Origin: Zancudomyces culisetae HAW-14-8
Taxonomy: Eukaryota; Fungi; Kickxellomycota
NCBI GenBank assembly: GCA_052426225.1
Contig: JBNJNM010000015.1
Location: forward strand, 1 to 64,000
Reading direction: 5' to 3'
DNA: 64,000 nt
Shown: one piece after another, positions 1,831 through 55,098 of the stretch
How the letters are laid out: each line of letters starts with the position of its first letter
Numbering within the stretch: the first letter of the stretch is position 1
The notes under the pieces: model-generated
Told to the model about the DNA's origin: nothing
The model's database searches: none
What the model saw: only the letters and a program-made list of their open reading frames with translations
Position numbers and translations under genes: made by a program

Positions 1831-2163
1831 TGTCATAAACTAATATTAAACAGTTTCAATTTAAATCAACAAACAATATCAAACATGATTTGGATGAATC
1901 AGAAATATGATTTTAAACATGTTTAATATTGAAACTAGCACACAACACAACTTTACTTTAAATAGTTCATTAATTTTAACTCTTTGCTATTTATGCAACA
2001 TTTTAGTCTTTAATATGAATTTATATAATACATCCAAAAACTTTAAATAGCATACTCTATTTCTTCAGAAAAACTAATCTGACAACAAGTGTCAACTATA
2101 GTTATATTTTATAGTACTACTTAATAATCACCAAATTACACCAAAATAAATAATTTCATGTCA
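1831..2163 (+). repeat. 5' LTR of element 1
   Basis: Direct repeat of 7482-7814 with TG...CA ends. Confidence 0.92.
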
Positions 2164-2279
2164 GTTTGACAGATCAATAAATAAAACTACTACTATCATG
2201 TCAGTGAATAATTACATAGACCTTGATGCACTAATAATAATGACTGAAGTCATTTTAATGAATTACATAGGATGGCAAC

Positions 2280-2673
2280 TGTCACGACTTGACACTAAGT
2301 ACTATTTGTATTAACTATGGCTATGATTTATTTAATATAATAATATGAGATTAAAATTATTATTTTGCTAAAGTTTCCTAAAGCAATAAAATCATTGTCC
2401 TTATATAGTTTAACAATATACAAAATTAATTGTAAAACATAAAAAAATCTATACTTAAACTATATCTTAAAACTATATAATTTAACTGTCAACTCCACAG
2501 TTAACATTTAATAATTTGGGGTAAAACCAAATTAATAAATTTTATTAATTCTTACTCCATATTTAATAATTTATGAGTAAGAATTAAAGCTGAGAAAACG
2601 TCAATAAATTTAACATTTGCTATTTTTAATAACATATTAAAAATAGCAATAATAACATGAATAGATCATGACA
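2280..2673 (-). mobile_element. Solo LTR (394 bp) inserted in the gag of element 1, related to the LTR of element 3
   Basis: TGTCA...TGACA ends with a perfect 5-bp TSD GCAAC (2275-2279, 2674-2678). Removal restores ATG GCA ACC CAA CTA GAC (MATQLD). Both ends and an internal TTGCTAAAG...CAATAAAATCA segment resemble 31770-32092. Confidence 0.9.
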
Positions 2674-3792
2674 GCAACCCAACTAGACGATCTTCAGCAC
2701 CGCTTAAATATGTTAAGAATTAATCAAGCAAACGAGTTACCAGTGGCTAGAGAACCAAGAGTAGCAGATCCTGAAAACTTTAGTGGCAATAGAGACCAAC
2801 TAAGATACTTTGTAGCACAAGTCCAACTAGTCATACAAGCTCAACCCTCTAGATTTTCAACAGATACTCAGAAAGTCATTTTTGCTTCTACTTTCCTTCG
2901 TGGTCCTGCTATCTCGTGGTTACAATCGTTTCTAGAATCTAATGATTATTAACCAACCCTGGAAAATTTTGACATTTTCATAAACGAACTATATCTGTTT
3001 TCGGAAACCACACCAATCTTCGACAGCTGAACGTCAACTCAGAAAAATTCGCCAGTTGAAATCCGCAGCCACCTATGCTACTGTATTTCGTCGTATTTCC
3101 ACACTTATGTCCTGGCATGACGCAGCACTCTGTAGCCAATTTTATGAATGACTTGAATAAGACATTAAAGATTTATTAGCCCGTTTTGATAGACCTGACA
3201 ACTTTTCAGAATTAATTGACCTCGCTATAAAAATCGACAACAGATTATTTGAAAGAAACCTTGAAAAATCGTTTCGTCCTCGCCCAATGCATATTCAAAA
3301 TTTGGATAACTCTACACCATCAAATAACAATTTAATAAACATAACACAGCCTCGGGTGCAACAAATGGAAATTGACGGAAATTCATCTCGTCGCCCACCA
3401 CTCACTTAGACTGAAAAAAAACGCCGCCGCGACCTTAATCTTTGTCTATACTGTGGTATTCCTGATCATGTCATTTCATCTTTTCTTCGTCGCCCGTAAA
3501 TAAAGGTAATAAATACCTTATCTGCAATCATTATTAAGGAAAACAATTAAGCTCAAGACAATTTTCGGACGTAGTCTTGAGCGTATCTAATTATCCTAAA
3601 CCGTCCACTTCAATCAATAATCTTTACCCTTTAAGTATTGCAGCTAATGAAACATCCGGAAGTTTGTATCAAGCTGAATTAAATCTACCTTTACAATTTA
3701 ACAATAAAATAAACACTACTGAAATAACCAATCTAACACCTGAATTAAATGAAAAAAATACATTCTACCAATCTAACTATAACTCTGAAAAT

Positions 3793-3990
3793 AAACCTGA
3801 AACCAAATCTGAAGTCAAACCTGAACTTAATACTGAAATCAAACCTGAACTTAAACCTGAACTTAAACCTGAACTTAAACCTGTAACCATATCTTAACTT
3901 ATAATTAAAAATAATCCCGTACTTCACTCATAACCTGAACTTAAGCCTGAACTTAAGCCTGAATTTAAGCCTGAATCTATACCTGACTGC
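3793..3990 (+). repeat. 12-bp tandem repeat (AAACCTGAACTT, encoding KPEL) between gag and protease of element 1
   Basis: Visible tandem copies at 3841-3885 and 3931-3975, plus degenerate copies. Confidence 0.85.
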
Positions 3991-6900
3991 AACTTATAAA
4001 TTAATTCCACAATCAATAAGAATCTGACCTGGAACATTTAACTATGTCAACAAATAAAGTTAACTCTCATCTTATAGTATCAGTAACCCTTCGGGTAAAC
4101 AATAACCCGATAAAAACCGTTCCCATGATTGATTCGGTTTCAACTAATTGCTTCATTGATTCTACTTTTGCCAATACTAATAACATTCCATTAGTATTAA
4201 AAAAATTACCAATTCCGCTACTTGTAATTGACGGAAGATTAATTTCGTCAGAGACCATAACACACAATACAATACCTCTTCAACTTAACACCTATAATCA
4301 TCACAAAACTATATCTTTTGATGAAACCAAATAGGGAAAATACCCTGTCATTATTGGAATAAACTGGCTGCGAACCCATAATCCACACATAAGTGGAATT
4401 TTGATAAGTTGTATTTCATGTCTGAATATTGCCAAAATAATTGTAGTATTCAACAAAACCAATGTTATACACACACAATAACTTGCACAATAATTCCAGA
4501 ATAATCAGAAATAACTCCTATACCATCGGAATATTCAGAATTTAAAGATGTATTCGACGAAAAAGCAGCTAATAATTTACCACCTCATCGTACATATGAT
4601 CATAAAATTCCGTTAACACCAGGCTCACAACCACCATTTGGACCATTTAATCACTATCTGAAACAGAACTCGCAGCACTTCGTGATTATTTGAAAGTATA
4701 TTTAGATAACGGTTTTATATATCCTTCATCATCTCCTGCTGGCTCGCCTATACTTTTTGTAAAAAAATAAGATGGATCTTTAAGATAATGCGTTGATTAT
4801 AGCGGATTAAATAACTTGACAATTAAAAGCAGGTATCTCTTACCTTTAATTGGAGTGTTACTCGACAGATTCAGACAAGCGAAAATATTTTCTAAAATCG
4901 ATTGTAGAGGCGCTAATAATTTAATAAGAATAGCTAAGGGAGAAGAATGGAATAATGCATTCCGTACGAGATACGGTCACTATGAATATAGAGATATGCC
5001 ATTCGGACTCTGCAATGCTCCAGCATCGTTTAATATTTCATGAATGATGTATTAACTGACTGCTTAGATAGATTTGCAGTAGTATATTTATATGATATAC
5101 TGGTATATAGTACAATTAGAATACCATATTAAGCATGTAAAAGAGATATTAAGAAGACTCCGAAATAATTCACTATATGCTAAACTGGAAAAATGATGAA
5201 TTCACAAAACAGATGTCGAATTTTTGGGATATATTGTTTCCGATAAAGGGGTAAGTATGGATAAAACAAAGACAATAGCTGTAAGTGCATGGCCTGCACC
5301 AACCTCAATAATAGTAATTCAAACGTTCCTTGGTTTTGCAAATTTAAATAGAAAATTTATATTGAATTATTCAAAGATTGTGACACCTATAACAAAATTG
5401 TTACGAAATAATGAAAAATGGAACTGGACACTGAAGCACAAAACATTTGCGATCAATTAAAAAAACATCTACAACTGCACCTATTTTAAAATATTTTGAT
5501 CCGAATAAATCAATTACTATCGAATCTGATACATTAGACTTCGCAATTAAAGGAGTTATATCACAACGCAACGATAATAACAATTTACATCCTATAGCAT
5601 ATTATTCCAGAATGTTACAACCTGCTGAAATCAACTACGAAATTTATGATAAAGAAATGTTAGTCATAATTGAGGCTTTTAAAGAATGGAGATCATACCT
5701 CGAAAGAGCATTACATCAAATTACGGTTTTAACTGACCATAAAAATCTAGAATATTTTACTACCACTAAAACTTTGAATAGGCGTCAAGCACGATGGGCT
5801 GAATTATTAGGAAATTATAATTTCATTATTAAATACGCAACTGGTTCATCTAACGGGATACCCGATGCTTTGTCCAGACGCCCGGATCATTTGCCTAAGG
5901 AGGGGGATGACGCTCTACGTACTAATAAAACTTTGCTAAAGCCAGAACAATTGATAATTGCAGCAGTAGAACCAATGGTTATAATAATTTTGATAAAACT
6001 ATATTTAATAGTAGCTACGAAAAAGATATTAAAGCTAATTCCATTATTTCTAAATTGCAACATATTAACAATTCATCTAACTCTGAATATCCAAACTTAA
6101 AGGATTATAAATACGACAATGAAATACTTACTTTTAAAGGTAAAACATACATTCCAGATAACATTGAAATCAAACTACTACAACTCAACCAATTTCACGA
6201 TTCGTCTATTGCTGGACACTTCGGACATTCTAAAACCTTTGATCTGATTTCAAGATACTATTATTGGCCAAAAATGAAAAAAATGATTAAAAATTATATT
6301 AACTCATGCGATCAATGTTGCAGATGTAAACCGATAAGACACAAACCATATGGTCAACTACAACCTTTACAGATTCCAGAAAAACCGTGGGAATCAATTT
6401 CTATGGAATTTATTGTTGGGTTACCATTGTCACAAACTTACGATTCAGTATTGATTATTGTAGATAGACTAACAAAAATGGCGCATTTTATTCCAACAAA
6501 TAACAATATCAACGCACAACAAACAGCAAAACTATTTATCAATAACATATTTAAACTTCACGGACTGCCAAAAGATATCGCCTCTGATAGAGGTTCTATC
6601 TTCACTTCAAAATTTTGGAATACTATTATCAAAGTATTAAATATAAAATTAAATATGTCAACAGCATACCATCCACAAACGGATGGTCAAACGGAACGAG
6701 TAAAACAAGTTTTAGAACAGTATATCAGTTTTATTGTAACTACAACCAAACAAACGGGCATGATTTATTAGCACTTGCAGAATTTGCATAAAATAACTCA
6801 CAACACTCAACTACAAAATTTTCACCATTCTACGCTAATACTGGATATCATCCTTCAATATTTCCATCAAATATTTTGACTTCACCCAGTAACTCGCCCA

Positions 6901-7481
6901 TAATCACAGATTTAACTCAGAAAATGTCACAAATTTACAAGGAACTTATAAAAAATATTAAAAATGTAATGAAAGATATGCTAAACTAATGATAAAAACA
7001 GCCAAGCAGAACCCAAGTTTAAACTAGTATCAAAAGTGTGGTTAAATAGAAAATAATTAAAACTAACAGCCCAAATAACAAACTAGATTATACTAAATTA
7101 GGTCCATTGACAATAGTTATAAAAATAAGCAAAGTAGCATACGAACTTCAACTTCCTACGACTATGAAAGTACATCCTGTCTTTCACGTTTCCCTTCTAG
7201 AACCAGTAACTAACAACAATATTGAAGGCCAAATTCAGGAAGCTCCATTACCGGTACTAGTTGATGGAATATCAGAATACAAAGTCGAACAAATATTAGA
7301 CAGTCGTATTAAATATAATAAACTACAATATCTAGTAGACTGGAAAGGGTATGACGCAAGCGAAAGAACTTGGGAACCAGCCGAACATCTAACAAATACA
7401 AAAGAACTTGTGGAAAAGTACCATAATGAAAACCCGAATAAACCAATGTCGCATAGAGATCGTCACTAAGAGAGGGAATAC

Positions 7482-7814
7482 TGTCATAAACTAATATTAA
7501 ACAGTTTTAATTTAAATCAACAAACATTATCAAACATGATTTGGATGAATCAGAAATATGATTTTAAACATGTTTAATATTGAAACTAGCACAAAACACA
7601 ACTTTTCTTTAAATAGTTCATTAATTTTAACTACTTTCTATTTATGCAACATTTTAGTCTTTAATAATAAATTTATATATTACATTCAAAAAGTTTAAAT
7701 AGCATTCTTTATTCCTTCAGAAAAACTTATCGACAACAAGTGTCACAATTAATATATATTTTATAGTAGTACTTAATAATCATCAAATTTCACCAAAAAA
7801 ACAAGTTCATGACA
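7482..7814 (+). repeat. 3' LTR of element 1
   Basis: Follows the PPT; direct repeat of 1831-2163. Confidence 0.92.
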
Positions 7815-9423: not shown

Positions 9424-10111
9424 TGTTGTAAACAATGAGCTGCTTATAACTTTGGACCGTGGATTAGTTATGCTTGATTAATATTTATTAGAAGAAGTAT
9501 GTATTTAGAGTAATATATTAATAGATGAGTTAATAAATTAATTTTTATTCCGATGTATACCAACGGAATTTCGAAGGGTTTAATAATTTTTATTAGAGAA
9601 TTTTACTATGAAGAAAAACTTAATGACAATATATTTTAGCTATAAAAATATGATAATGTATAATCTAATTAGATTAGGTATCTACTTATCGTAAACTTAT
9701 AATTTCATTTTTTGATTTTAACATGTATTTAGATTATCGATTATAACATTATATTTGTATATCAATTTACATTGATTTTGTATTAAACTTTAACATTGAT
9801 TTTGTATATCAATTTTAGCATAGATTTTACTTAATGATTTTGGCATAGATTTTATTTATCAATTTAATCATTGATTTTAGATATCCAATTCTCTATGGAT
9901 TATGTCTATCCAGTTTTACCATGGTTAATTATAAATTTAATAATTGTAAAATTTCTTGAATTTTCTATGTAATTTTTCTATAAATAAATTCTGATATTTG
10001 ATGGTGTATTCTGCTAACATAATTTCATGTCGGATGACATTTTCGAATGCCGGAAATGAATTAATATAATAGGTTAAATTTTTCATAAGCCAAAATGTAA
10101 CTATAATTATT

Positions 10112-10413
10112 TGTCAAGGTCTGGACTTGGATAAAATATATTTATTAGTAAACTAGACTATAAGTGAATAAACTAAACGAAACTAAACTCGTTGTAAAAC
10201 TTATCGTTCCATCATGATAATCGTATAGCTTATATACTTTTCATGATGGGACGATAATTTTAAAATTATACTAATTTAAAACATAACTAAAACATAACTA
10301 AAACATTTAAATTAATAATGTGGAGGTCGGTAAATGTTATGGTTATAATTGATAAATTATATGAAACATTGTCCTGTGGAGACAAAGGTTTCATATAATT
10401 TAAAACCATAACA
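10112..10413 (-). repeat. 3' LTR of element 2
   Basis: Direct repeat of 15033-15334, adjacent to the PPT. Confidence 0.97.
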
Positions 10414-10458
10414 CTACCCCCCCCTTTAGACTTGAGTATTTATAACTGTATAGGCCTC

Positions 10459-10612
10459 GGGCCTCAATGGCATAGTCGGTATGTCTCATGATTGTGGTCT
10501 GGTGAATGCGAGTTCGAGTCATTGCTGAATCCTTTAGGTGGTAATGATGCAGGATATTGATTCAATTTTGCCAATCATAATGATGGCCGAGGTTCGATTC
10601 CTCGGGGGTCCA
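10459..10612 (+). tRNA. tRNA-like gene or pseudogene (possibly His-GTG with a ~75-nt intron), antisense within the 3' UTR of element 2
   Basis: Acceptor stem GGGCCTC(10459-65)/GGGGTCC(10605-11) plus discriminator A. A-box TGGCATAGTCGG. D-stem GGCAT/ATGTC. Anticodon stem ATGATT(10488-93)/AATCAT(10573-78). Perfect T-arm CGAGG-TTCGATT-CCTCG (B-box). Followed by a T-run. Non-canonical features: two extra A before T8 and a long variable region. Confidence 0.65.
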
Positions 10613-10614
10613 TC

Positions 10615-10640
10615 TTATTTTTTTTTTTTTTTTTTTTTTT
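10615..10640 (+). terminator. Oligo(dT) run, putative Pol III terminator of the tRNA-like gene; overlaps the pol stop codon on the other strand
   Basis: TTA followed by >20 T directly downstream of the acceptor stem. Confidence 0.6.
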
Positions 10641-13600
10641 ATGGTTTGTAAGGATGATTCTTGTGGTATAAATTAAGTAGGCGGTCACAGTTTAAATTCT
10701 CACTAGGTTCCCAAGATCGTTCAGCTGCGCTATGTCCTTTCCAATCAACCAAGTACTCGATTTTGTTGTATCGTTTTCTTGAATCGAGTATTTTTGCTAC
10801 TTCGTATTCATTTTGTCCTTCGACTGTGATTGCTGGAGGTGGTTCCTTGACTCGTCCTGGAATTTCATTAGGTTTGTATGGTTCCAATAGCGAAATATGA
10901 AATGTAGGATGAATCTTCATCGACTCTGGTAATTCTAGTTTATAAGCTACTTTTCCTATCCTTTTTAATACTTTGAATGGTCCAAGAAATTGGTGGTCTA
11001 ACTTCTTTGATGGTCTGTCAGTTTTTATATTCTTTGCATTTAACCACACTAGATCGTTTGGCTTGATTTCAGGTCCACTTGTTCTTTTCCTATCCGCGTA
11101 TAACTTAGATTTTTTGTTAGAATTATATAAATTAGTTTTTAATAATGTATTTATTTTTCTTAAGTTATTTATGTGTTCATCTGCTTCGGGTACTTGTGTA
11201 GTTGATAATTTGATTGTAGTGAAGTTCGGGTGATATCCCATGAGACTGTAAAACGGCGATGACTTTGTAGATGAGTGTTTAGAATTATTATACGAAAACT
11301 CTGCCATAGGTAATAGCGTGTCCCAATTATCTTGTTGATAAGAGATAAAAGCTCTAAGGTATTGTTCGAGAGTTTGGTTTGTTCTTTCTGACTGACCGTC
11401 AGTTTCTGGATGGAATGCTGAAGAGAGTTTAGATTTTATTTTCAGTAGTTTTAGTAATCTTTGCCAAAACTTTGAAGTAAATTGGCTACCTCGGTCAGTG
11501 ATTATTTCTTCTGGTAATCCATAGTTAGAGAAAATATGTTTCAGGAAGATGTCAGCAGTTTGTTGCGCAGTGGGAAGTTTCTTGATAGGCACGAATTTAG
11601 CCATCTTTGTAAACCGGTCTACCATTACTAGTATAGTTGTATACCCGTTGGATGGTGGTAACTCTACAATAAAATCCATTGTAACTGATTTCCACGGACC
11701 TGATGGAACTGGTAAAGGTGTTAGTAATCCAAACTTTCTGTGTCGAGGTATTTTTGTTCTTTTACAGATATCGCATGTTTCTATATATTTCCTTACATAG
11801 TTATTCATATCAGGGAACCAAAATGTGCGACGTAACAGGTCTAAAGTTTTCTTAATTCCATAGTGTCCAGCAGTTGTTGAATCATGGTGCATCTTGATAA
11901 CATCCAGCCTAGTGCTTTCTGGTAAATATATTCTTTCTTTGTACTTTATTATTCCATTGTCAATTCGATATATCGGTTGTTTATCATTATTTGATTTGGT
12001 CGGTAAATTTATTTTTTTCAGTAACTTAATTGCATATTTGTCTTTCTTAGACTCGTTTAGGATTTTAGATAATATAGGGTTATGTGGCTGGATAATTGCG
12101 TAAAGGAAGTTGGTATTGCGAAAGATGTTTTTAGGTAGTGGAGGACCTTGTTGGTATTCAGATCTTCTAGACAGTGCGTCAGGTTTGCCACCCTCAGTTC
12201 CCGGTCTGTATGTAATAAGGAAGTTATATCGTGATAGCGTAAGTGACCATCTTGCGTGCCGTCGGTTTAAGGTTTGAGCATTCTTAAAGTGTTCTAGATT
12301 TTTGTGATCCGTATATACAATTGTAGTTTGCTGTGTACCTTCGAGGTAATGTCTCCATTCTTTCATTGCTGTAACAATGGCAAGCATTTCCTTATCGTAG
12401 ATGTCGTAATTGATTTCCGCTGGGGTGAACTTTCTAGAGTAGTATGCAACAGGTCTTAATTCATTATCTTCATCATACTGCGATAATATTGCTCCCATAG
12501 CGTAATCCGAAGCGTCAGTCTCCACGATATATTGTTTGTCATGGTTAGGATAAGAGAGTAAAGGTAATCCAGCTAGATGTCTAATGAGTGTAGTAAACGA
12601 ATTCTGTTCTTCGTTGTTCCATTTAAATGCTATATCCTTTTTTAGTAAATTTGTTAAGGGTAACGCGATGTTTGCCATATTTGGGATAAATTTTCTGTAA
12701 TAGTTTACAAAACCTAAGAATACTTGTATATCTTTAATTGTTTTTGGTATTTCCCAGTCGATCAACTTGGCTACTTTTTGGGGATCAGATGTTATACCTT
12801 TTTGGCTTATTACGTGGCCTAAGAAATCGATCGATGTTTGGTGGAATTTACATTTTTCTAGTTTTGCATACAGTTTGTTTTCCTTGAGTATTTTTAGTAT
12901 TGTTCTTACATGGCTGTAGTGTTCCTCTAGACTAGATGAAAATATAAGTATGTCGTCAAGGTATGCAATAGCATATATATCCAGTGCTTCTCTGAGTATA
13001 TCATTCATAAACGTCTGGAATGTGGCTGGGGCATTAGTGAGCCCGAATGGCATCACCCTGTATTCATATAAACCGTATCTGCATCTGAAAGCAGTCTTCC
13101 ATTCATCACCAGGTCTGATTCGTACTAGGTTATATGCTCCTCTTAAGTCTAATTTGGTGAAGTATTTTGCCTTACTTAGATGATCGAACGATTCATCTAT
13201 TCTCGGTAAAGGGTATATATTTTTTGCTGTTATTTCGTTTATCTTTCGATAATCAACACAAGGGCGTAGGCCACCGTCCTTTTTATCTACAAACATTATT
13301 GGTGCTCCTATTTGTGACTTTGATTTAACTATAAAACCCTTTTTTAAATTTTCTTGGATGTAATCGTACAGTGCTTGTGACTCGACAACCGACAATGGGT
13401 ATATGGGTCCCATTTTCGGTAATATGTTTGACGTTAATTCTATTGGGCAATCATAACTTCTGTTTGGTGGTAATCTGTCTGCTTCGACTGGATCAAATAC
13501 CGATTGTAAATCATGATATTGTGGTGGAATATGTATAGGATCTGCGGAGTTGGATGTGTTGACGTTATCCGTATTGATGGAAAATGGTACTGGGTGATTG

Positions 13601-14226
13601 CTTTCGGTTTGGGTTTTATTTATGGGCTCAGACGGGGCATCATAGAATTCTTCATCTGAAGAAATATCTGGGCTACTAGGTCTATCTGCCTCGATATCAG
13701 AATGTTCATGAATTGGGGCTCTGAATACAGCATCTATTCTCTTTGGATTGCTAATACAGTTGTGTACACAGTAATTGGAGTTGAAAGATAATGAATGATT
13801 AATCCAGTGTATTTGTGGATTATGTTTACGTAACCAAGGTAATCCCAAGACTATGGCTATATCAATTGAGTTTATAGGTAGTAATGATATTTCTTCACAG
13901 TGGTTATTAGATAATGTTAGTGTAAACCCAATACAAGTTTCAGTTATGGGTGATCCAGTTATTTTATTACCGTCGATGGTTTCTAACTCGATGTGTTGTG
14001 ATATTGGTTTTCTGGGAAGGTTTAATCTTTTAGCTAACTTCTCCTGAATAAAGTTTCCTGTGGCACCGGAGTCAATTAGTGCCATTATTGGGACCGTAAT
14101 GTTGTTATAAGATAACTTTATTGGAAAAGTGAATTTCCTTAAACTGTCTGTAAGATTATTAACGCTAAATAGGTAACGAGAACCCAGTAATAACTTCCCA
14201 GGTATTACTGAGTGTGGACTTTTCCC
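10639..14226 (-). CDS. pol: Pol polyprotein (protease-RT-RNase H-integrase-chromodomain), reached by -1 frameshift from gag
   Basis: Open 1215-codon frame with ALIDSGATGNFI, YRVMPFGLTNAPATFQ, AYLDDILIFS, ETDASDYAMGA, HHDSTTAGHYG..CDIC, DFIVEL, TDRGSQF, HPETDGQSERTNQ and YEVAKILDSR..YLVDWKG..SWEP. Confidence 0.97.
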   Translation of the reverse strand, partial: GKSPHSVIPGKLLLGSRYLFSVNNLTDSLRKFTFPIKLSYNNITVPIMALIDSGATGNFIQEKLAKRLNLPRKPISQHIELETIDGNKITGSPITETCIGFTLTLSNNHCEEISLLPINSIDIAIVLGLPWLRKHNPQIHWINHSLSFNSNYCVHNCISNPKRIDAVFRAPIHEHSDIEADRPSSPDISSDEEFYDAPSEPINKTQTESNHPVPFSINTDNVNTSNSADPIHIPPQYHDLQSVFDPVEADRLPPNRSYDCPIELTSNILPKMGPIYPLSVVESQALYDYIQENLKKGFIVKSKSQIGAPIMFVDKKDGGLRPCVDYRKINEITAKNIYPLPRIDESFDHLSKAKYFTKLDLRGAYNLVRIRPGDEWKTAFRCRYGLYEYRVMPFGLTNAPATFQTFMNDILREALDIYAIAYLDDILIFSSSLEEHYSHVRTILKILKENKLYAKLEKCKFHQTSIDFLGHVISQKGITSDPQKVAKLIDWEIPKTIKDIQVFLGFVNYYRKFIPNMANIALPLTNLLKKDIAFKWNNEEQNSFTTLIRHLAGLPLLSYPNHDKQYIVETDASDYAMGAILSQYDEDNELRPVAYYSRKFTPAEINYDIYDKEMLAIVTAMKEWRHYLEGTQQTTIVYTDHKNLEHFKNAQTLNRRHARWSLTLSRYNFLITYRPGTEGGKPDALSRRSEYQQGPPLPKNIFRNTNFLYAIIQPHNPILSKILNESKKDKYAIKLLKKINLPTKSNNDKQPIYRIDNGIIKYKERIYLPESTRLDVIKMHHDSTTAGHYGIKKTLDLLRRTFWFPDMNNYVRKYIETCDICKRTKIPRHRKFGLLTPLPVPSGPWKSVTMDFIVELPPSNGYTTILVMVDRFTKMAKFVPIKKLPTAQQTADIFLKHIFSNYGLPEEIITDRGSQFTSKFWQRLLKLLKIKSKLSSAFHPETDGQSERTNQTLEQYLRAFISYQQDNWDTLLPMAEFSYNNSKHSSTKSSPFYSLMGYHPNFTTIKLSTTQVPEADEHINNLRKINTLLKTNLYNSNKKSKLYADRKRTSGPEIKPNDLVWLNAKNIKTDRPSKKLDHQFLGPFKVLKRIGKVAYKLELPESMKIHPTFHISLLEPYKPNEIPGRVKEPPPAITVEGQNEYEVAKILDSRKRYNKIEYLVDWKGHSAAERSWEPSENLNCDRLLNLYHKNHPYKP
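14177..14226 (-). promoter_or_regulatory. -1 programmed ribosomal frameshift signal (G GGA AAA, 7-nt spacer, stem-loop or pseudoknot)
   Basis: Gag frame TCG GGA AAA GTC; pol frame GGG AAA AGT. Stem CTCAGTAATA/TATTACTGGG; the loop GGGAA can pair with downstream TTCTC. Confidence 0.8.
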
Positions 14227-15005
14227 GACTGAGTTTTGTTTGGACAGCGAATAGCTATATGTCCTTGATTTCCACAATACATGCATAACCCAAGAGCTCT
14301 GCGTCTGTCCTTTTCTTCTTGAGAGAGATGTGGTCGCTGTTTGGTAACTAGTGCGTCTATTTCCATAGGTTCACCAGGTGGAAGGTCATCATGCATAGTA
14401 CTTTGAACAGGTTCTGCTTTAGTTGTTGGTCTCTGAAATGATGAATTATAATAACCCGGAGCGCTTCTTAACATTCGTCGATTGGAAAGGCGGTTATCAA
14501 CTTTTACAGCTAGAGCTATAGTGTCCTCCAGTTTTATAGGCATATCATTCATCATAAGAAAGTTCATGACATTGTCATTTAGTCCTCTTAAGAACTGGTC
14601 AATTAGTGCAGCTTGGTCAAATCCGCTGATTCTGGCTGAAGTCCTGAATTCGGCAGCATAGTTAGCCACGCTTCTTGGCCCTTGTTTACATCTACGTAAT
14701 TCTCCTCTAGCTCTTATTTCTTGGCTGGGGTCTGAAAAATTCTTCTTAAATAATTCCAAAAACTGAGCATAGTTTGCGAGGTCTGTTGATTTTTCCTCGA
14801 TGAGCGAGTTAAACCATATGGCTGTGGGTCCTGTTAAGTGTGCGCCAATAAATACTATTTTGTTTTTTTCAGTCTTGAATAGATCTCCACGTGCCCAAAA
14901 ATAAAGCTCAATGCTTGACATGAAGGCTTGGAATTCTGAAGGTTTCCCACTAAAACGTGGAGCGTCTGGAAGTTTAATGCTTGACTCGGTGAATATACTT
15001 GACAT
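14205..15005 (-). CDS. gag: Gag (capsid plus CCHC zinc knuckle) of element 2
   Basis: First ATG after the LTR is at 15005 (MSSIFTES). Motifs PRFSGKP, QGPRSVANYAAEFR, EPMEID, CMYCGNQGHIAIRC. Confidence 0.95.
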   Translation of the reverse strand: MSSIFTESSIKLPDAPRFSGKPSEFQAFMSSIELYFWARGDLFKTEKNKIVFIGAHLTGPTAIWFNSLIEEKSTDLANYAQFLELFKKNFSDPSQEIRARGELRRCKQGPRSVANYAAEFRTSARISGFDQAALIDQFLRGLNDNVMNFLMMNDMPIKLEDTIALAVKVDNRLSNRRMLRSAPGYYNSSFQRPTTKAEPVQSTMHDDLPPGEPMEIDALVTKQRPHLSQEEKDRRRALGLCMYCGNQGHIAIRCPNKTQSGKVHTQ

Positions 15006-15019
15006 GGTATCTTGAAGAG

Positions 15020-15030
15020 AAGTTTTACAA
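15020..15030 (-). promoter_or_regulatory. Self-priming primer-binding site (TTGTAAAACTT), complementary to the predicted transcript 5' end at 15123-15113
   Basis: No TGG tRNA-type PBS. 11/11 complementarity to LTR sequence AAGTTTTACAA lying ~30 nt downstream of TATATAAG (15157-15150). Confidence 0.8.
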
Positions 15031-15032
15031 AC

Positions 15033-15334
15033 TGTCAAGGTCTGGACTTGGATAAAATATATTTATTAGTAAACTAGACTATAAGTGAATAAACTAAACG
15101 AAACTAAACTCGTTGTAAAACTTATCGTTCCATCATGATAATCGTATAGCTTATATACTTTTCATGATGGGACGATAATTTTAAAATTATACTAATTTAA
15201 AACATAACTAAAACATAACTAAAACATTTAAATTAATAATGTGGAGGTCGGTAAATGTTATGGTTATAATTGATAAATTATATGAAACATTGTCCTGTGG
15301 AGACAAAGGTTTCATATAATTTAAAACCATAACA
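15033..15334 (-). repeat. 5' LTR of element 2
   Basis: Direct repeat of 10112-10413; contains a TATA box and the self-primer. Confidence 0.97.
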
Positions 15335-15363
15335 TTATTAACGGGAATTGGCCATTTCTAACA

Positions 15364-17732: not shown

Positions 17733-18547
17733 TATATTACTACAGAAAGGAGGAGAAAATTGACAAACATACAATACACCCAAAGTATTTTTTTGCTGCA
17801 AGTCTGCACAACAATGAGGAAATACTTCCACAATTTATGCAAGAGCTGCTAAGGGTATTTAAATTATTGGGATTTGAAAATGTGTTCATATCGATATACG
17901 AAAATGGTTCTACTGATAAAACTAGAGAAATGTTAGAAAGCTTTTCAGCTCGTCTGGAGGAATACAAGGTTCAGCATAGGCTTAATATGAAGAATTCAAA
18001 ACGCCCTAAAAACTCTCACAGAATAGAATATTTGGCAAATGTTAGAAACAAGGCACTGGAGCCATACTATGAGTTTAGCGAGAAAAAAAGGCAGCAAAGG
18101 ATGTTAAGCGGTGATCGAAACATGGAGTTTGATAAAATTATATTTATCAATGATATTATGTTTTGCAGGAACGATATACTGGAACTGATTCTCCAATCTA
18201 ATAATAACCAGGCAGATATCACATGTCCAATGGATTTGGACTACTATGACAAAACAGATTCATCAGGAAATAAGATCCCAATAAAGACATTCCGTGATAC
18301 ATGGGTGGCGAGAGATATAAAGGGTGATGCGTTCAGAAAAAACATAAAGGATCTAACTACCGACAGCGAATCAAACAAAAGAGCAGAAAAGGGGCTACCA
18401 TTTCAAGTTCAATGCTGTTGGAATGGAGTTGTAGTATTAAATCCAAAGCCATTTGACAATCCGTTTAATCTAAGGTTTAGGAGATCAGTCCTTAATACAA
18501 CCGAATGTGCAGCATCAGAGTGCTCACTACTTTGCAACGATTATTAA
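17733..18547 (+). pseudogene. 5'- and 3'-truncated copy of the CAP59/CMT1-family mannosyltransferase
   Basis: Matches 53304-54118. Lacks the promoter, start codon and TM anchor because the duplication breakpoint falls inside the gene. Confidence 0.88.
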
Positions 18548-19195
18548 TTGTGCCGTTACCAGCTCAACCAAAGACGGTGATTCGGTTTCTCTCTTCTTAA
18601 CGGAGAGAGTAACCATTCTTTTTGACTCCCCTCCAAGGAGTCGCCCTACAAAAAAACTCCGCCATCCTTCACTACCACCTCTCTCCTCACTTCCTACAGT
18701 TGACATATCTGGGATACGTTCCAGAGTTTTATACCTAACTCCAGTCCAGTATTTACAGTCCAGTAGCATATGTTCAATAGTTTCTGCGCTGTTTTTTTTA
18801 CAAAATGGGCACCTAGTTTTGAACTTTTCATCCATTGTTCCCAGTTTTGCCAGGCTCTCTGCTGTCCAGAACCTACCTGTTCTTATTCTCCCTATCTCCA
18901 TAAGCCCCTGCTTATGCTCAGGGTATATAAGTTGTAGGTAAATTCAATTACCCATTGCCTCGAGATTCCTGTCTAATAACCATCTCGAGATTTTAGACTT
19001 GTCATTACGAGAATATAGTTCTAATAGTACGCTCCTCGTTGTTTTGCCCTTTTCCGATCCAATATATTTTTTCATCCGTTTTTTCGTTCCCGTAACCCAA
19101 GTGTTGGATCTGTTTGACATTGGGATTAAAATTAAATCAGCAATCCATGTTTTTAGTGTTGGCCATTTCTCAAACGCTCTTTCCCTCCAAACTCT
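18548..19195 (-). mobile_element. Non-LTR retrotransposon (LINE) C-terminal fragment with zf-RVT-like zinc finger
   Basis: RAFEKWPTLKTWIADLI..TWVTG, then RIRTGRFW..CPFCKKNSAETIEHMLLDC. Flanked by TTATTAA on both sides. Confidence 0.85.
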
Positions 19196-19527
19196 TTATT
19201 AAACGGAAAGTTGGCTTAGCACTTTATTGTAAGCCATAATTTTATATATACATAAACTCGAATACAAAAATGATAGCAGTTAAAAAACAACTTTACTTCA
19301 GCTTTTTCGTTGTCGGACTTTTTTTGTATCATAGATTTATTAAATAAACATTATTTAAATTTTCGGTTCATGAAACATGTAGAAACCAACACTAAAAAAT
19401 AACACCTGCTTTAATAAATTCTCCATATCCCTCTAAGGGCTCTAAATTCATTGAGCGTTATTCTAATGAGGTTTTTTTTTCATAAAAAATGTAATCTATT
19501 ACATTTTAAGCTGATAAACTCAAGAGT

Positions 19528-20844
19528 TTAGTACATAAGGTATTTGGATCTGAGTTGAGTAAAGGCAGCAACATCAGCTTGGTATGAGCTGACAATTGTT
19601 GGGTAGCTGGCCCCTTCGTTCAAGAAGTTTCTCAACTTTGTGTTTCCTGACAATTTGTCAATGAAGTTGGTTGCCAAGATTGTAAAGTTTGCTGGGAATT
19701 GGTTTCTGATGGTTGAAAGTGCTGCAATTGCAGATGTAATTGGGCGATAGGTTCTGCGGTCGCTAACGTAAACTTGCAATCCACCACATTCAACTCCAGA
19801 GAACTTAGAGAATGATGGTGTGAAGTAGAAAGGTCTGAAGATGACTCCTGGAAGTTTGTATGAGTTAAGTGTCTTTACCAATGTGTCAAGTGCAAGATCT
19901 TTCATGAATGGTGCTCCGACAGTTTCAAATGGTCTGGTTGTTCCACGGCCTTCGCTCAAGTTGGTTCCTTCAAAGAGTGATTGACCTGGGTATACCATGG
20001 CTGTTGATGGTGTTGGCATATTTGGTGATGGCATGATCCATGGGAGACCGGTTTGATCAAAGTACATGCTACGTTCCCATCCTGTCATTTTGATGACTTG
20101 GAGATCAATCTTCTTGACTGCTGTGTTGTTGAGCTGTACTTCATTTGGCAAGAATTCCTCGTTAAACAATGTTGCAAGTTCACCAACAGTCATGCCGTGT
20201 TGTTGAGCGATTTCGCGTCTTCCGACAAATGAGGCGTTTTGAAGTTGGAGAGTAGCTCCATCAACAACCAACCCTCCGACTGGGTTTGGTCTGTCGAGAA
20301 CTATAAACTTCTTTTTGGCAAGGGCAGCGCCGACCATTGCATCATACATAGTCCAGATGTATGTGTAGAATCGGGCTCCGACATCCTGGATATCGAAAAC
20401 CAAAGTGTCAGCTTCCATTTGGTTGAATGCGTTAGCCCATTGCGAGCCATTGGTAAATGCATATCCGTCATATACTGTAAGGTTAGTAATGACATCACGG
20501 TATGTGGCTGCTCCGAGTGATTCTCCTGCTTGAGCTGCTCCACGGAATCCGTGCTCTGGTCCGACGACACCAACAATCTTCATCTTATTTTGTGCAACGA
20601 GATAATCTACCTCATGTACCAGATTTCTATTTACTGCTGTTGGATTTGTGATGAAACCATAGCTTGACTTGAAGTCAAAGTCAGGAGATTTCATCATTTC
20701 AAGCCAGTTTTCAAATCCGGTTTTAACGTTTCCTACTGGGCTTCCTGTGTCTGGGCAGTGGGTGTTGTCCACGGGGTAGCGTGGCTTGCATTTTGCTGCA
20801 GCGGTTACAGACGCCAAAAGTGACACTATTGTCGTAAACTTCAT
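19528..20844 (-). CDS. namZ: Secreted exo-beta-N-acetylmuramidase NamZ-like protein (DUF1343/YbbC, GH171), 438 aa, copy 1
   Basis: ATG at 20844 gives signal peptide MKFTTIVSLLASVTAA. Family motifs GPEHGFRG, FDIQDVGARFYTYI, VLDRPNP, HGMTVGELA, WIMPSPNMPT, FEGTNLSEGRGTTRPFE. Intronless. Confidence 0.93.
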   Translation of the reverse strand: MKFTTIVSLLASVTAAAKCKPRYPVDNTHCPDTGSPVGNVKTGFENWLEMMKSPDFDFKSSYGFITNPTAVNRNLVHEVDYLVAQNKMKIVGVVGPEHGFRGAAQAGESLGAATYRDVITNLTVYDGYAFTNGSQWANAFNQMEADTLVFDIQDVGARFYTYIWTMYDAMVGAALAKKKFIVLDRPNPVGGLVVDGATLQLQNASFVGRREIAQQHGMTVGELATLFNEEFLPNEVQLNNTAVKKIDLQVIKMTGWERSMYFDQTGLPWIMPSPNMPTPSTAMVYPGQSLFEGTNLSEGRGTTRPFETVGAPFMKDLALDTLVKTLNSYKLPGVIFRPFYFTPSFSKFSGVECGGLQVYVSDRRTYRPITSAIAALSTIRNQFPANFTILATNFIDKLSGNTKLRNFLNEGASYPTIVSSYQADVAAFTQLRSKYLMY

Positions 20845-23800
20845 TTTTGCTTTGTTTATATTAATAAAACGGTTTAAAGGGGTAGTTCTGAGTGTTTCTT
20901 GTCTAAAACCAGTCTTCAAATACTTTCAGCTTATATACTTTTATATTTAAAAAATGAAAGAAACGCACTGTGCTTTGTTGTTTTTTTTTTTTTTGAACTT
21001 TGTTATTATATTTCGGCTATTACGGGCATTTTGATCTGATCCAGCCAACAGTCCTCGGTGGAATTCAAAAATTCGGGCAATTGGTAGCTATTAAAATTCT
21101 GATATCGCAGTGGTCCGTCACAGAACGTTTGTTTTTTAGATGCACATTTTTTTTATTTTGCATTAAGCATTATGTTATGGCAAAATCCTATTTAATTGCG
21201 ATATTTATTTAAATCCAATTGGGTTCATAGGCCACTATTATTTATTAACAGGCCAGTTTTTACATATTATAAATCGAAAAATATTTTCAAGGCTGTTTCC
21301 AAGAGCATATCATACTATAAAAATTGGTATTCATTGTATGAAATATGTTTCATATACGTGATGAATGTGATTAATACTTCGTAGGGTAGTAACAGTTTGG
21401 CATTTAATATATTTATAACCTACAGAATGTTGTGGAAAAGATTATTGTTACTGTAAAGGTGAGGATATTAATTCAGTAATAACAAGTTGTCAAGAATATA
21501 TCATTTGGCAAACACCGATAATATTTTACTCAATTTTTAACGAATAAAAATCACTGTAGCTTAAAATGTTTAAAAGAATTTTTTTTAATTTGAATACTGA
21601 TTGTTTTATATAATATATTTATGCATCCACTTATAGAGATAAAAGTGTTGATGTAATTATTGTCTTTTTCCTTTGGTAGCTATTGTTTTTTTTTTGGCAG
21701 ATTCGATGTTTACAGTTTTAACGGTCATTTTGTAGATAATCTTCGATGAATTACTATTTTGATTTTCCAAATTTTTGTTACATAAGAAATTTCAAAAATA
21801 TTTCGCGATAATAAAAAAAGCAAAATGCATAAAAAATAGTCCAAGTGCAAAAATAATTTAAAAATCAGTTACATATGATGGCCCAGGGCCAAAACAATAC
21901 CCATGAAATAGCACTTAAAATTATAGTTAAAACATGGCAAACAGTACTGAATCTGAATAACCAAGCTATTTCTAATAGGGATATATACCGTTTATCCTGC
22001 ATTCTGGTATAATTTCCGAAAAATATTGATCTTCTATATTTTTGGAATCCTGTATTTTAGCTTTATGACTATTTCTAAATCTACTATCAATGATTGTTAA
22101 AAAGTTAGTATAACGTTACATTCAGGATGGTATCTTTTTATTGTAAACATTAAATATTACTAAAATGCATTAAATACTCAACCCCTTTCCATTTCCCCCG
22201 CTTTACTAGAAAAAATAATGGCCAATAACTATACCTTAGCTGCACAGTCATCTTTTTTTAACCATTTGATAAAAAGCTAAATATTACAAACGTGAGACCC
22301 TGTTAAAATCTGAACATATCCTCAGCGACTTGGTAATAGCGTAAAAGAACACACCATATCACTAGCACAATGTTAACAATGGCTACTAAAGAATCAGAGT
22401 TGATCATTAAAAAAAAATTAAAAAAATTATTTGGGGGAGATTTGTTAGAGACAGCTTCTGTGGTTTTAAATGTTTTTGCGATTCAGTAAAAAAAATTGTG
22501 CTCCAAAAGTCGCCTTATTAGATATTTTTTCGGCTGTATTGAGTATATTTAATACTTATTTTTATTTATAATACATTAGGTTAAACTCAGTTTTAGGCTG
22601 TTTGCCACAGTTTGGTTAGTCATATTTTTGCTCCATCGGCTGATTATGTTGTGAATCCGACTGAAAATATTAGAAATAACAGTACGATATTGTACTGTGT
22701 CTACCAACAGACGTTTTTGCTTGCTACAAATATCTAGTAGTATGATTAACTGTTGGGATAAAAATGATGGAGGCGTTTCAAACCTTTCCCACTCTTTATT
22801 TTAGGTTTGTTCGATTGTCGTGTTTTTGAAATTACAACAGAATACGATGGTACACACCATACCATATATAATAAATACAAAGGTACACATGTTGTATGTA
22901 ATTTATAAAAATTGGTGGGGGTTATAGGAAATAAGTTGGGTATATTATAATATTTATAACATAATGCCTTTTCTTTCCGGGATAACTATTATATACACAT
23001 TAGTTTGCAGCAATTATATACTTTTATTTTTATTTTTCATAGCTACCCTCTATTTATGAGCTTTACATCATAAACTTCACTTTTTCAAAAAGAAGAAAGA
23101 AAAGATTATCAGTAATAGCGATTACTACTCGTCTCGGTATATTTTGTGGTCTCATGTTTTAGATTGAGTTATCTGTTTAAAAACAGGTACCACATAATAA
23201 CCATAAATAAATAGCTCCTAGACTATTCAAAATAAAACAACCTTAATCAAAAACCTGAAATTACCATTTTGCCTTTACAAATACAAAAATAATCTTGAAT
23301 ACTATCATACATGATCTAGATAAAGTTTATCACCATATGGATAACAAAGAATAGATGTATACCAATATAGAAACACTGCTTGGTCTATCTGCGTATCAGG
23401 GGTAGTGGTGTTATAACAACAAGTCTGTTGGTGATACAACTTTTTTTGTGGTAGGTTTTCTTTTAACACCATAACCATTTGTCCTTCTGTTTATACTAGA
23501 AATAATGGCTAGATTTCATACCTAACTGTTCTCTGATTCGTATTAAATGCTATTCCTGAAAAAGATGTATCCAACTTTTTCAAGTGGTTTTAACATTTTT
23601 TTATGAGCTGTTCAGCTTTAATGGTGGCTTGCTATTTTCTAACTAACCGATTTCATTTTTTAAAAACCATATTTTAAAGTTGAAAAAAATTTATATATTC
23701 AAAAGAAAAAGACAAATATCATAAATATATTAAAAAATGGATAAATCAAATAAGTTAAAAGTGTAATGTGAAAACTCAAAATCGATAAATTCTAGTAACT

Positions 23801-24064
23801 ACAGCATTGGCTGATATGGGTACGGTAACATATATGTTACTAATTGGTGAATATACTTTGAATTGGAGGAGACAGGTTTTGATGTTACACTGGTAGTGGA
23901 GGTATAGGCAAATTATGATTTGAATGTTAAATCAGGATTAGCATTTGAGACAGGATAAAATATCACTAGTTCATAACTGGTAGTAACTGTGACAGTTGAA
24001 GTTACGGTAGCAGCTGGTAGATAGTGAGTAACTGGAACACATTTTTTTGTTGGGTTTACAGTAG

Positions 24065-26974: not shown

Positions 26975-29900
26975 TTTTATTTTGTACAAGATATATATGT
27001 TTTTAGTATTAATAACCTTAATAAACTATAAATAAAATAGCAAACAGTATTTATCATATTTATATATGTTTGAAAGCAAAAAAATAAAATACATTTCACG
27101 CTGACGATGAACGATAGTTACACACAACATTGCTGACCTTGGTGTACTACTCTTATAATTAGATCTATTCCCTAAAAATATATTACCATCAATTAACTAT
27201 GTTAATTTAAATTTAACTGAGGTTCACATATCGGATTTACCTTTATTATTTTTACTAGGTTAATAAATGCATGAAGTCATAAATCCGACCTTTAGTTCTT
27301 TAACTAAACACGTGTAGTTGAAGCCCAGGTCTTGAAGTTCTTTTTTTTTAATTAAATCTTGGTTTTCATTTTTATAACAAAGTGCGTTCAACCCACATCA
27401 TCTTTAGCTTCAGTGTATCAAAAAGCTGCTCAGACACTGGGAAAGAAAAGGATAGGAAAGGGGATACCAAATAAAGCAAAGTATAACTCATTTGTTTTTA
27501 CTTTCTGTTAAAACCCTCTTTATGTTTGATACTCGTACTAATATGTGTTCGATCAGTTTCTCGCACAAATAAAAAACAAAACTTGTATTTGAGCTCTGGC
27601 AATCTACCGCTTATCAAAAATGATATTTGCTACGGGGCAAAACTTGATTTATGTGCTGTCTCCTTGGTTTACACTATCAAAAATATCTGGACTATGTACA
27701 TCATTTGGTTCAATAGTTGAGCCATTAGTTCTTTTTATTTTAACGCAAATTTGTTGTACAACTTTTAATTTTGAGCTAAATATTTTAATTAGAATTATCA
27801 TTTTCAGTATTTTTTTACTTATAATTAGTTAGTATAGTACGCACCATTCGCCATCACTAGGCTGCCAATTTAACATATTCACAAATTTAGCGACTATCTA
27901 ATTGCATTAAAATAATCAATATTTCACATATAATGTTCTTTGATATTAGGTGTTTTCTTCACAATCCCGGTTGTGTTTCCAGATTTAAGGACAATTTTCT
28001 TCATTACTGATTGATACAAAAATGTTTGTGTGAATTTTATCCAAGTTTATTATTTCTCAGCTATTGAGGTATTCACAAATGATTGTCGTGTTCACTGATT
28101 TCGAGCTCATTAGAGTACCCAAATTGCAAACTAATTGGCCCCTACTATATTAATAAATCTATTTAAAGTCGTGTACCACAACCTTTGAGCAACGAATAAA
28201 CAGCCTGCAAACAAAGCGCGCTGCTAAGCCTCACTAATAAATATATACAAACCACAATACTCAACTCGCTAGTTTCCGTTTATTTAAATGCAGAAGGATT
28301 CAAACGGTAACAAGGGCAGCAGTTTGTATAATTTTTTTGTAGGAAGGGGGTGTGCTAGGTCTCCTCAGCTTAAGAGCATGCACCATTTAACCACTCACAA
28401 ATAATTTGCTAGGTTACTGCTGACACCCCCGACCCTTTGAAGCTGTTTTTTTTCAGCTGCCATTGAGTGCGTATTTTTTAAATACTAGTTTATATACACA
28501 AGTAGCGGATAAACTATAGTAGCACAAGTCCTTTTGATTAAAATTATTGATAAATTTAACTGGAAAATTGACATATATTATGTATTGTACAATACCAATC
28601 ATTCAAATAATAAAATGTTTGTAATGTCAATATCTCATTAGTTGATGAGCAATCCTCTTTTTTACTGGTTTTCCTTCAATTTAGTTCAGAATTCCTGAGT
28701 TATACTGGGAAAATACTATCTGTTAAGCACCAATAAGACATCGCTAAATAGGCCCAATAAAAAAAAATGTTTACTTTGCTGTAACCAGAGAATAAAGCTT
28801 GTTAAATAAAACCATATACCTCATCAACTGAATTCGACGCAGAAATGCCATGCTGTTCCACGTTGGTTGAGGCTTATTTTAACTACACTGAACTCAACTT
28901 GATAGTTCTGTATTGTGCGATTTTACTTTTATCGCACCCCAACCTATAACCGACTTGTAAGCAAGTTTCATTAGACTTTTTCCTCAAGGAGAAAAGGATG
29001 AGTGCGTTCCTCCCCTCATCATTGGTAAGGATATACACATATCTTTGTCTATCTTTATCATAACTTTTGTATCACGCAGCATCTAGTGCTTTTAGATTTT
29101 GTTTAACCAACTAGACGCAAAAATTAGCGTATTTTACTACGCTCTTTTCTCTGCTACAACAAATATAGTTGTATCTAGGTATTTTTCCCATTTGTAAAAT
29201 TGTGGTTCTTTATCGGTGTTGATGGAGGTGCCATTGCATTTGAAAATTTATTAACACATTGCCTGCTTTAATTATTGCAATTAACTGCAATGCAACTTTT
29301 GTTTGTAACCTATAGCATGATATAGCTTGGGTTTCTACTCATGATACTTTTGGCATATTAAAAAACAGTACAGCAGCCAATTTTGTTAATAATATGACAA
29401 TTATAAATGAGAAGGGTGAAGAGATAGTTAAAAACCAGAACCTCGGTTGTATTTGTAGAACATTCTAAACAGGAATAAAATGTGAAATGGTACCCATTGC
29501 TGGTCATGCGTTCAGTATGGAAGGGTAATACCAGTGATAACACATCATTTATAACACCAACGACATTTCACCTATCCAGCAAATAAATTTGAAATCAATT
29601 TTTTGTAGAAATTAACTAGAGCATCAAGTAACCATAAAGGTAGTACCTACAAAGTTTATTCTCGAATTTCCAAGATATTAGTAGATACAAATATTGATTA
29701 TATTTGTTTAATAGAACTGTAATCACTAGCACCAAAAAAAAGTTTCTATAGAAATATTATTGTTGGAGAAGATGTCATAGGACAATACTTATACTGAGTC
29801 TAGCGGCATAAGGGAGTGAATAAAATAGCATTTTGACCTCATATCTATCCTATTTTTATGTTACCTTTTTCTATTGCAAAATACACGTATAATCTAGGAT

Positions 29901-31769: not shown

Positions 31770-32092
31770 TGTCAGGACTTGACAACTGAGTGATATTATT
31801 ATTTAATTTATGTTTGAAACTATAGTTAAAGAAAGTTGATATTTTATTGCTAAAGATCTTTATCAATAAAATCACTAAGTATTTATAGTTTTAAAACTCA
31901 CTATCAAATTCGATAATAATTTAACGACAATAAATAACTAGGCATGAAACAAAATAGCACAACTCAATATTAAATGTAATTTATTATCTAGTTGGGTGTT
32001 GGGGAATTGAAAAAAAATATTAAACAATTTCCCTTTTCCCAATATGTGGTTAATTTTGGGTTCCCCCAAAATGTCATGATTGGATCATGACA
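31770..32092 (-). repeat. 3' LTR of element 3
   Basis: TGTCA...TGACA ends, adjacent to the PPT; similar to the solo LTR at 2280-2673. Confidence 0.85.
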
Positions 32093-34304: not shown

Positions 34305-34870
34305 TGTTAAGACTTGAATATTTTAAGATTATTTATTTATTACTATTATATTATTTAGAAAAATATGATATTCAATAATGAATAAGATATTTTTCACTGA
34401 AGTTCTCTTTCGTTGGATTTCGAAAGGGTTTTTATACTTTTACTCCAGAGATTTTTCCATATAAAATTTTCTTAAGTAAAGTTGCTATCAAACTATAAAT
34501 TTGACTATTTAACTTATGAGTAACTGATGTGATTAACTACCGTGAGTTTAGTGTGTCAATGATTGCGTCATTCATGTTATTCTGACGATTCTTTGAATTA
34601 TTAGTTTCGGAATTCTTTCTAGGTTTCTTATTTCCTAAAATGGTCTGTGAATATTATTATAACAAATTTCATCGCGAAATTCATTTTTTACTTGACTTGG
34701 TTAGATTAATTTAATAATTTGTACTTAGTTACATTTAATTAATTTGTACTTAGTTACATTTTAGTAATTTGTATATGGTTACAATTTCATTTTCTATCCT
34801 TCTTGATTTGGTCATGGAAAATTATAATAAACATGAATTTATTTAATTTATTTTAAAACAATTCCTAACA
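34305..34870. mobile_element. Probable solo LTR at the truncation point of element 3
   Basis: TGTTA...TAACA ends, flanks GTTCT/GTTAT, and shared segments with 9424-10111. Confidence 0.55.
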
Positions 34871-54766: not shown

Positions 54767-55098
54767 TTATTAAACGGAAAGTTGGCTTAGCACTTTATTG
54801 TAAGCCATAATTTTATATATACATAAACTCGAATACAAAAATGATAGCAGTTAAAAAACAACTTTACTTCAGCTTTTTCGTTGTCGGACTTTTTTTGTAT
54901 CATAGATTTATTAAATAAACATTATTTAAATTTTCGGTTCATGAAACATGTAGAAACCAACACTAAAAAATAACACCTGCTTTAATAAATTCTCCATATC
55001 CCTCTAAGGGCTCTAAATTCATTGAGCGTTATTCTAATGAGGTTTTTTTTTCATAAAAAATGTAATCTATTACATTTTAAGCTGATAAACTCAAGAGT

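Follow-up and report, generated by a model that had tools for sequence, protein, structure and literature searches.

Why does an intact retrotransposon carry a tRNA-like sequence, read from the opposite strand, between the end of its pol gene and its polypurine tract (PPT)? The question is raised by a 64-kb stretch of DNA from Zancudomyces culisetae HAW-14-8 (contig JBNJNM010000015.1 of assembly GCA_052426225.1, positions 1 to 64,000), referred to here as the window, which has a G+C content of 33%.

An intact chromovirus with an extended 3' end

Element 2, the host of the tRNA-like unit, occupies 5.2 kb of the minus strand (Table 1) and displays the full set of Ty3/gypsy chromovirus features, namely gag, a PR-RT-RH-IN pol with a C-terminal chromodomain, LTRs with TG..CA ends, a PPT and a 5-bp TSD. 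The initial annotation had described the element as intact with identical LTRs, and the data bear this out: the LTRs align over 302 bp without a difference (the single mismatch of their 305-bp BLAST match falls beyond the TG..CA ends), and the gag and pol frames, which overlap each other, are both open. Element 2 is a young, intact chromovirus. Its primer site begins 2 nt past the 5' LTR and is complementary to the LTR itself, from which self-priming is predicted; the earlier claim that no tRNA primer is needed agrees with this prediction. A primer role for the cassette was rejected, since element 2 has this 11-nt site of its own.

The pol stop codon, which overlaps a run of A on the element strand, is separated from the PPT by 211 nt, close to the 210 bp first estimated, whereas in elements 1 and 3 of the window the stop adjoins the PPT or falls inside it. 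These two elements share only 42-53% identity with element 2 over most of pol and therefore represent other families, which provide no empty-site test. Element 1 (1831-7814, plus strand) is an older, broken chromovirus with LTRs that are 91% identical; element 3 (about 31800-34332, minus strand), also older and broken, is truncated at its 5' side, and no second LTR of it was found in the window.

Several further features of the window were recorded along the way. The LTR of element 2 contains long, imperfect hairpins (10334-10413 and 10190-10266), whose weak matches to microRNA families lie far under the Rfam thresholds. An 11-kb segmental duplication (17733-29063 and 53304-64000; 98.8% identity over 7 kb and 93% over 3.2 kb) contains a CAP59-type mannosyltransferase, a NamZ gene and a long ORF with 12-bp repeats. 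The mannosyltransferase has 86% identity to a Zancudomyces culisetae protein and at most 57% to the other matches listed, mostly from Smittium, Furculomyces and Coemansia, which makes a fungus of the Harpellales, inhabitants of insect guts, the probable host. The NamZ exo-beta-N-acetylmuramidase is encoded by a single ORF and is likely to have a signal peptide. Its two copies lie at 19528-20925 and 55099-56496 on the minus strand, and the gene could be of bacterial origin and serve this gut fungus in digesting peptidoglycan. Additionally, long tandem arrays lie in open frames at about 60-1700, 24430-26700 (a 12-bp unit in both), 47300-48400 and 60000-61400.

Table 1. Features of element 2 and its antisense cassette, in coordinates of the window
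Feature	Position	Strand	Remarks
5' LTR	15033..15334	-	302 bp, TG..CA, identical to 3' LTR
3' LTR	10112..10413	-	identical to 5' LTR
TSD AATAA, 5 bp	15335..15339, partner 10107-10111	-	flanks both LTRs
Primer site, 11 nt, complementary to LTR positions 212-222	15020..15030	-	predicted Tf1-type self-priming
gag, 266 aa, Cys/His knuckle	14205..15005	-	Pfam Retrotrans_gag, Ty3_capsid; translation
pol, 1243 codons, PR-RT-RH-IN-SH3-chromodomain	10639..14370	-	ends HPYKP-stop; Pfam
PPT	10414..10427	-	
Putative native tail between cassette and PPT	10428..10452	-	length comparison with elements 1 and 3
tRNA-like unit, antisense to element; acceptor with G3:U70, discriminator A73	10459..10612	+	ARAGORN with intron 101.3, shuffles, stems, fold
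A box, 11/11 to TRGYNNARNNG	10468..10478	+	consensus from PMC7954030
Inner B box, 10/11, 44 nt from T8 of A box	10511..10521	+	likely relic of decayed 3' tRNA half
Outer B box, 11/11	10591..10601	+	within intact T arm
79-nt segment removed if spliced at canonical 37/38 (His register)	10498..10576	+	putative
3' trailer, 5 nt	10613..10617	+	
T23, predicted Pol III terminator	10618..10640	+	A23 at pol stop on element strand
6-nt direct repeat of 10460-10465	10453..10458	+	at putative 5' junction

A tRNA-derived Pol III unit on the opposite strand

The additional sequence is a tRNA-derived Pol III unit that lies in antisense inside element 2. Specifically, a run of ARAGORN, one of the checks that the initial annotation had proposed, returns 10459-10612 with a score of 101.3 as the sole match in 64 kb when introns are allowed at the default threshold; no second tRNA gene is called in the window at this threshold, and the cassette gives no match when introns are disallowed. 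Dinucleotide shuffles of the whole stop-to-PPT interval never reach a score of 100 (0 of 2000), and those made without the T run do so once in 2000. The cassette strand folds with a z-score of -2.6, compared to 0.0 for the element strand, and 12 of the 55 pairs in the predicted fold are G-U. A comparison with Rfam families went the other way and gave no tRNA match for the cassette at E values up to 10. Neither LTR holds a second copy of the cassette, and none was found elsewhere in the window.

The antisense cloverleaf that had been claimed stands in most of its parts. The acceptor stem pairs at 7 of 7 positions (two of them G-U), the T stem at 5 of 5 around a TTCGATT loop and the D stem at 4 of 4 (one G-U), and the A box, B box and oligo-T terminator that a functional nuclear tRNA gene requires are all present. 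The predicted terminator, T23, is the sole run of at least 15 T or A in the window. The claim needs correction at the anticodon stem, which has one mismatch in each of the three registers laid out, and the geometry departs from the canonical cloverleaf expected of a functional nuclear tRNA gene in two further respects, namely two extra nucleotides between the acceptor and T8 and a D arm that is one nucleotide short or displaced. Because the boxes and the terminator are intact, binding of TFIIIC and a short, tRNA-shaped transcript that ends before pol are predicted. The resulting RNA is probably not a normal decoding tRNA.

The apparent intron of this unit deserves a closer look, as the second B-box-like sequence reported within it was recovered (10 of 11 positions). 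From this inner B box to T8 of the A box, the distance equals that of a tRNA without an intron, which suggests that the insert is likely an extra, decayed 3' half. The simplest layout would have one 5' half and two 3' halves behind it, of which the inner one has decayed. In shuffled inserts, a B core occurs at any position in 98 of 20000 cases, and at the canonical spacing in 11 of 20000. Taken alone, the first 76 nt form a weak intron-less cloverleaf with the anticodon TGT, one transition away from TGC, and a score of 86.8 that 56 of 3000 shuffles reach. An exact tandem dimer was set aside, since the similarity between the halves is not significant: the observed global score is reached by 1242 of 3000 and 587 of 3000 shuffles, and that of the 3' halves by 426 of 3000 and 200 of 3000. 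A hairpin or small-RNA precursor was discarded as well, given that the insert folds no better than its shuffles (z of -0.1 to -1.0). Elsewhere in the window, the insert finds nothing beyond 11 identical bases or 13 of 14.

Which tRNA, then, is represented here? The acceptor carries G3:U70 and A73, which points to a tRNA body of the Ala type, and the D loop and 3' end presumably resemble those of yeast tRNA-Ala. According to the accessible text of PMC7954030, G3:U70 is the principal alanine identity element and enough for charging by AlaRS, and Thg1 recognises GUG. The anticodon is ambiguous on the available sequence. The initial annotation had offered His and Gly. Splicing at the canonical 37/38 site would indeed remove 79 nt and yield GTG within a normal loop (T32 T33 GTG G37 A38) and a 5-nt variable region, with T32 paired to an A at intron position -3 and with a G30-A40 mismatch, and the spliced forms score 109.9-110.4 in ARAGORN. 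A His label nevertheless ignores the Ala-type acceptor on which this geometrically possible reading sits, and the Gly label, which needs a non-canonical splice site, disregards the acceptor stem as well. The ARAGORN score selects no anticodon, as excisions that produce Gly, Ala, Asp, Lys or Thr forms score about equally (107-111). By register, the anticodon is GTG with the canonical splice, TGT in another register and TGC with a non-canonical splice only, the last being ARAGORN's own call, Ala(TGC). A tRNA-Sec was also considered, as Z. culisetae has Sec machinery according to the available part of bioRxiv 10.1101/314781, and rejected: there is no Rfam match, the discriminator is A, and the TTCAA near 10561 has no flanking stem as judged by eye.

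Origin and persistence of the cassette

How did the unit get there, and why is it still present? The annotation had taken the lack of a poly(A) tail and TSD as one reason why the cassette may be stable cargo. This step is not supported, since the junctions do look like those of an insertion: T23 at one end, TAT repeats, a 6-nt duplication and a pol frame that is cut short. Specifically, about 185 extra nucleotides open with six nucleotides repeated from the tRNA 5' end and close at the T run, and the 3-nt sequence TAT stands at both junctions. From 10452 to the LTR there are 39 nt; the corresponding distance, measured from the K-P codons, is 36 nt in element 1 and 30 nt in element 3. Among 101 homologues that could be parsed out of 120 (at least four large values are parsing errors), pol ends exactly at K-P in one and within three residues of it in 14, so the short pol end is weak evidence. 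As such, the unit looks like an insertion of about 185 nt at the end of pol, bounded roughly as a Pol III transcript would be.

The available data are compatible with a model in which element 2 captured a Pol III unit that has since been inherited as a tolerated passenger, a reading that we favour and hold with middling confidence. Given G3:U70 and A73, the donor would have been a tRNA gene of the Ala type, or a sequence derived from such a gene, in which the extra, decayed 3' half was present before capture. Capture may have taken place at the RNA level, as suggested by bounds that fit a Pol III transcript and not a random fragment of chromosomal DNA. The oligo-U end of the transcript could pair with the A-rich element sequence at the end of pol, and the reverse transcriptase could subsequently switch template, which would leave about 185 nt, from near the tRNA 5' end to the T run, and a new stop right after the last conserved K-P codons. 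The U tail of a Pol III transcript is shorter than T23, which counts against this route, and a read-through transcript with two template switches would give an identical layout. The insertion would have survived because hardly any other site would have spared both pol and the PPT, and because the antisense orientation would keep a tRNA fold, an expected target of RNase P and RNase Z, out of the element RNA. The element would then have kept moving with the cassette aboard.

Most likely, the cassette was already present before element 2 last moved, because the LTRs are identical, the unit is non-canonical and the sole harmless site is occupied; a later insertion would need to have happened within little time and to have landed in a target of about 40 nt out of 5.2 kb. 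The case for inheritance is hence an argument from likelihood. The outer cloverleaf is better preserved than the inner half, which selection would also produce.

In total, 118 relative loci were collected (one collection was scanned in 3 of 64 parts, and the best 80 of 598 matches were kept), of which 106 reach the end of the chromodomain and 96 have at least 250 nt beyond it. Among the matches listed, full-length identity is at most 52% and none is a family member. Likewise, no sister proteins above 60% identity were present among the best 120 of 1691 and the best 120 of 204 matches, the gag protein was absent from the protein collection searched, and a protein scan of viral contigs gave no match. 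Thirty integrase-region relatives in prokaryote assemblies (L089-L118) most likely represent eukaryotic contamination. Tails of several hundred bases are common among the relatives by a rough PPT pattern, so a tail of 210 nt is in itself not unusual. None of the 96 relatives has a comparable unit between stop and PPT in ARAGORN or in a T-arm scan of the first 600 nt. Two related chromovirus loci contain antisense tRNA relics on the minus strand, at L004:3358-3401 and L015:3360-3403. In each, A and B boxes spaced by 44 nt fall within the initial 90 nt of the 3' LTR, and these boxes match the consensus at 10-11 of 11 positions for the A box and 10 of 11 for the B box. Neither shares significant sequence with the cassette or has an Rfam tRNA match (14 of 88 loci scanned), and a further antisense stretch that resembles A and B boxes lies near position 130 of L004. 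L001 has one sense-strand T-arm match, 520 nt out.

The cassette was also sought beyond these loci. An exact pattern found no copies in viral or metagenome contigs, and a combined D-arm and T-loop pattern found none in prokaryote genomes or viral contigs. In a BLASTN comparison with phage records, the matches listed (15 of 174) were all short, at an E of 0.5, and those under annotated tRNAs cover the T arm.

The barrier, antisense, decoy and tRNA-spreading roles offered by the initial annotation would all be candidate functions. One alternative is a selected cis module, which we regard as possible but unlikely. According to this explanation, TFIIIC and TFIIIB would occupy both B boxes and the PPT/U3 edge and would either maintain the element in an open state inside heterochromatin, the predicted target of its chromodomain, or shield the 3' LTR. 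The promoter and terminator parts are all intact, there are two B boxes, and L004 and L015 repeat both the 44-nt spacing and the antisense polarity in the 3' LTR. The MAGGY chromodomain, which binds H3K9me (PMC4600332), also counts for a cis module. So does the barrier activity of tRNA genes in yeasts. On the other hand, the cassette lies about 4.4 kb from the 5' LTR promoter, and a unit between stop and PPT is missing from all 96 relatives with a tail of at least 250 nt. The shared polarity would follow equally from the loss of sense-strand insertions, which are expected substrates of RNase P and RNase Z. A bolder, doubtful extension would hold that autonomous elements of the gypsy type repeatedly adopt an antisense tRNA-gene module by the PPT. 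The module would be unusually complete here, with TFIIIC recruited through the two B boxes so that the element stays active within its target heterochromatin, and would release an alanine-chargeable mimic (Ala acceptor and His anticodon if spliced at 37/38) that could act as a mistranslator or decoy.

Alternatively, a T-tailed, tRNA-derived SINE or retrocopy might have inserted after this copy jumped, which is rather improbable. T-tailed SINEs do occur in grasses, and the cassette has the TAT repeat on both sides. Its length of about 185 nt, its homopolymer end and the 44-nt spacing of its A and B boxes agree with the SINE anatomy described in PMC3531059. Against this, there is only one copy in 64 kb, the LTRs are identical, no other site would be harmless, a 3-nt repeat carries little weight in AT-rich DNA, and the 5' and 3' ends of the cassette pair as a complete acceptor stem.

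More improbable still is a working, intron-containing tRNA gene that would produce a His tRNA or put alanine at His codons. The His register speaks for such a gene with its T32-A pair, 5-nt variable loop and well-scoring spliced forms, as do the sufficiency of G3:U70 for AlaRS charging and the recognition of GUG by Thg1 noted above. The two extra nucleotides before T8, the D-arm defect, the G30-A40 mismatch, the comparable scores of other excisions and the missing Rfam match all argue against it, and mistranslation should come at a cost to the host.

Finally, chance resemblance in a non-coding tail has a very small probability and is largely refuted by the shuffles. The right order of T23 and of A and B boxes that are both perfect also speaks against it. 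In its favour, Rfam gives no tRNA match, and ARAGORN made calls in 3 of the 118 relative loci (L019, L048 and L109, at 95-100% of the threshold) that were judged spurious on inspection and have no TTCRA loop; L109 has a second call below the threshold.

Relation to known systems

The result has consequences whichever of these readings applies. If the cassette is selected, elements that seek heterochromatin would have a means of bringing along a Pol III site of their own. As a passenger, it would still document the uptake of Pol III genes by LTR elements and would serve as a caution that tRNA predictors count units of this kind among host genes.

Known systems share individual aspects of this arrangement. 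Skipper-2 of dictyostelids is likewise a chromodomain element associated with tRNA genes and, in the accessible part of PMC5006619, is described as inserting 7-136 bp downstream of them, which represents one route to read-through capture. The tRNA genes in that case lie outside the element, and such targeting is not seen in the present window. Tf1/Tj1-type elements and fungal chromoviruses resemble element 2 in their LTR-complementary primer site and gag-pol organisation and, for the chromoviruses, in the chromodomain, and the available portions of PMC4600332 and PMC2864245 make no mention of an internal tRNA-like unit in either; Tj1 inserts upstream of tRNA genes and carries none (same sources). 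Full-text literature searches, with most subscription journals and Repbase outside their reach, returned no description of an internal antisense tRNA unit in an autonomous chromovirus, and the terms 'tRNA', 'LTR' and 'SINE' are absent from the main text of PMC12611240 as far as it was accessible.

Among SINEs, dimeric families such as Twin of Culex and simple SINEs of Ala origin are known. The cassette differs from SINEs in that it ends in T rather than A and its ends close into an acceptor stem; one copy occurs in the 64 kb. What it shares with simple (ID, vic-1, DAS-I) and dimeric SINEs, as far as these are covered in the accessible text of PMC3531059, is an A/B-box head, an extra tRNA-like part, a homopolymer end and its size.

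Further parallels come from non-autonomous LTR elements. The Cassandra and Ajax TRIMs also have a Pol III promoter inside an LTR element, but according to the part of PMC10886601 that was available, their promoters are derived from 5S and located in the LTRs of non-autonomous elements, and that of Cassandra transcribes the element itself. Helenus/TRIMp3 (Kojima 2024, PMC10886601), which occurs in fungi, contains a tRNA-derived sequence with conserved A and B boxes within an LTR retrotransposon, as element 2 does. The same text describes it as short and non-autonomous, with the tRNA part in both LTRs and proposed as a promoter of the element, judges this part mostly to be neither a functional tRNA nor a primer, and states that 'not a few' Repbase LTRs contain tRNA-like sequence. 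Promoters derived from tRNA have been described in the LTRs of non-autonomous elements (PMC10886601). Element 2 has the A/B-box sequence in common with Helenus and differs in being autonomous and in holding its unit internally (its LTR ends at 10413) and singly; the unit here lies in antisense and has a T run of its own. Taken together, the cassette is an unusually complete tRNA-derived Pol III unit in an autonomous LTR retrotransposon, seen here in a single copy.
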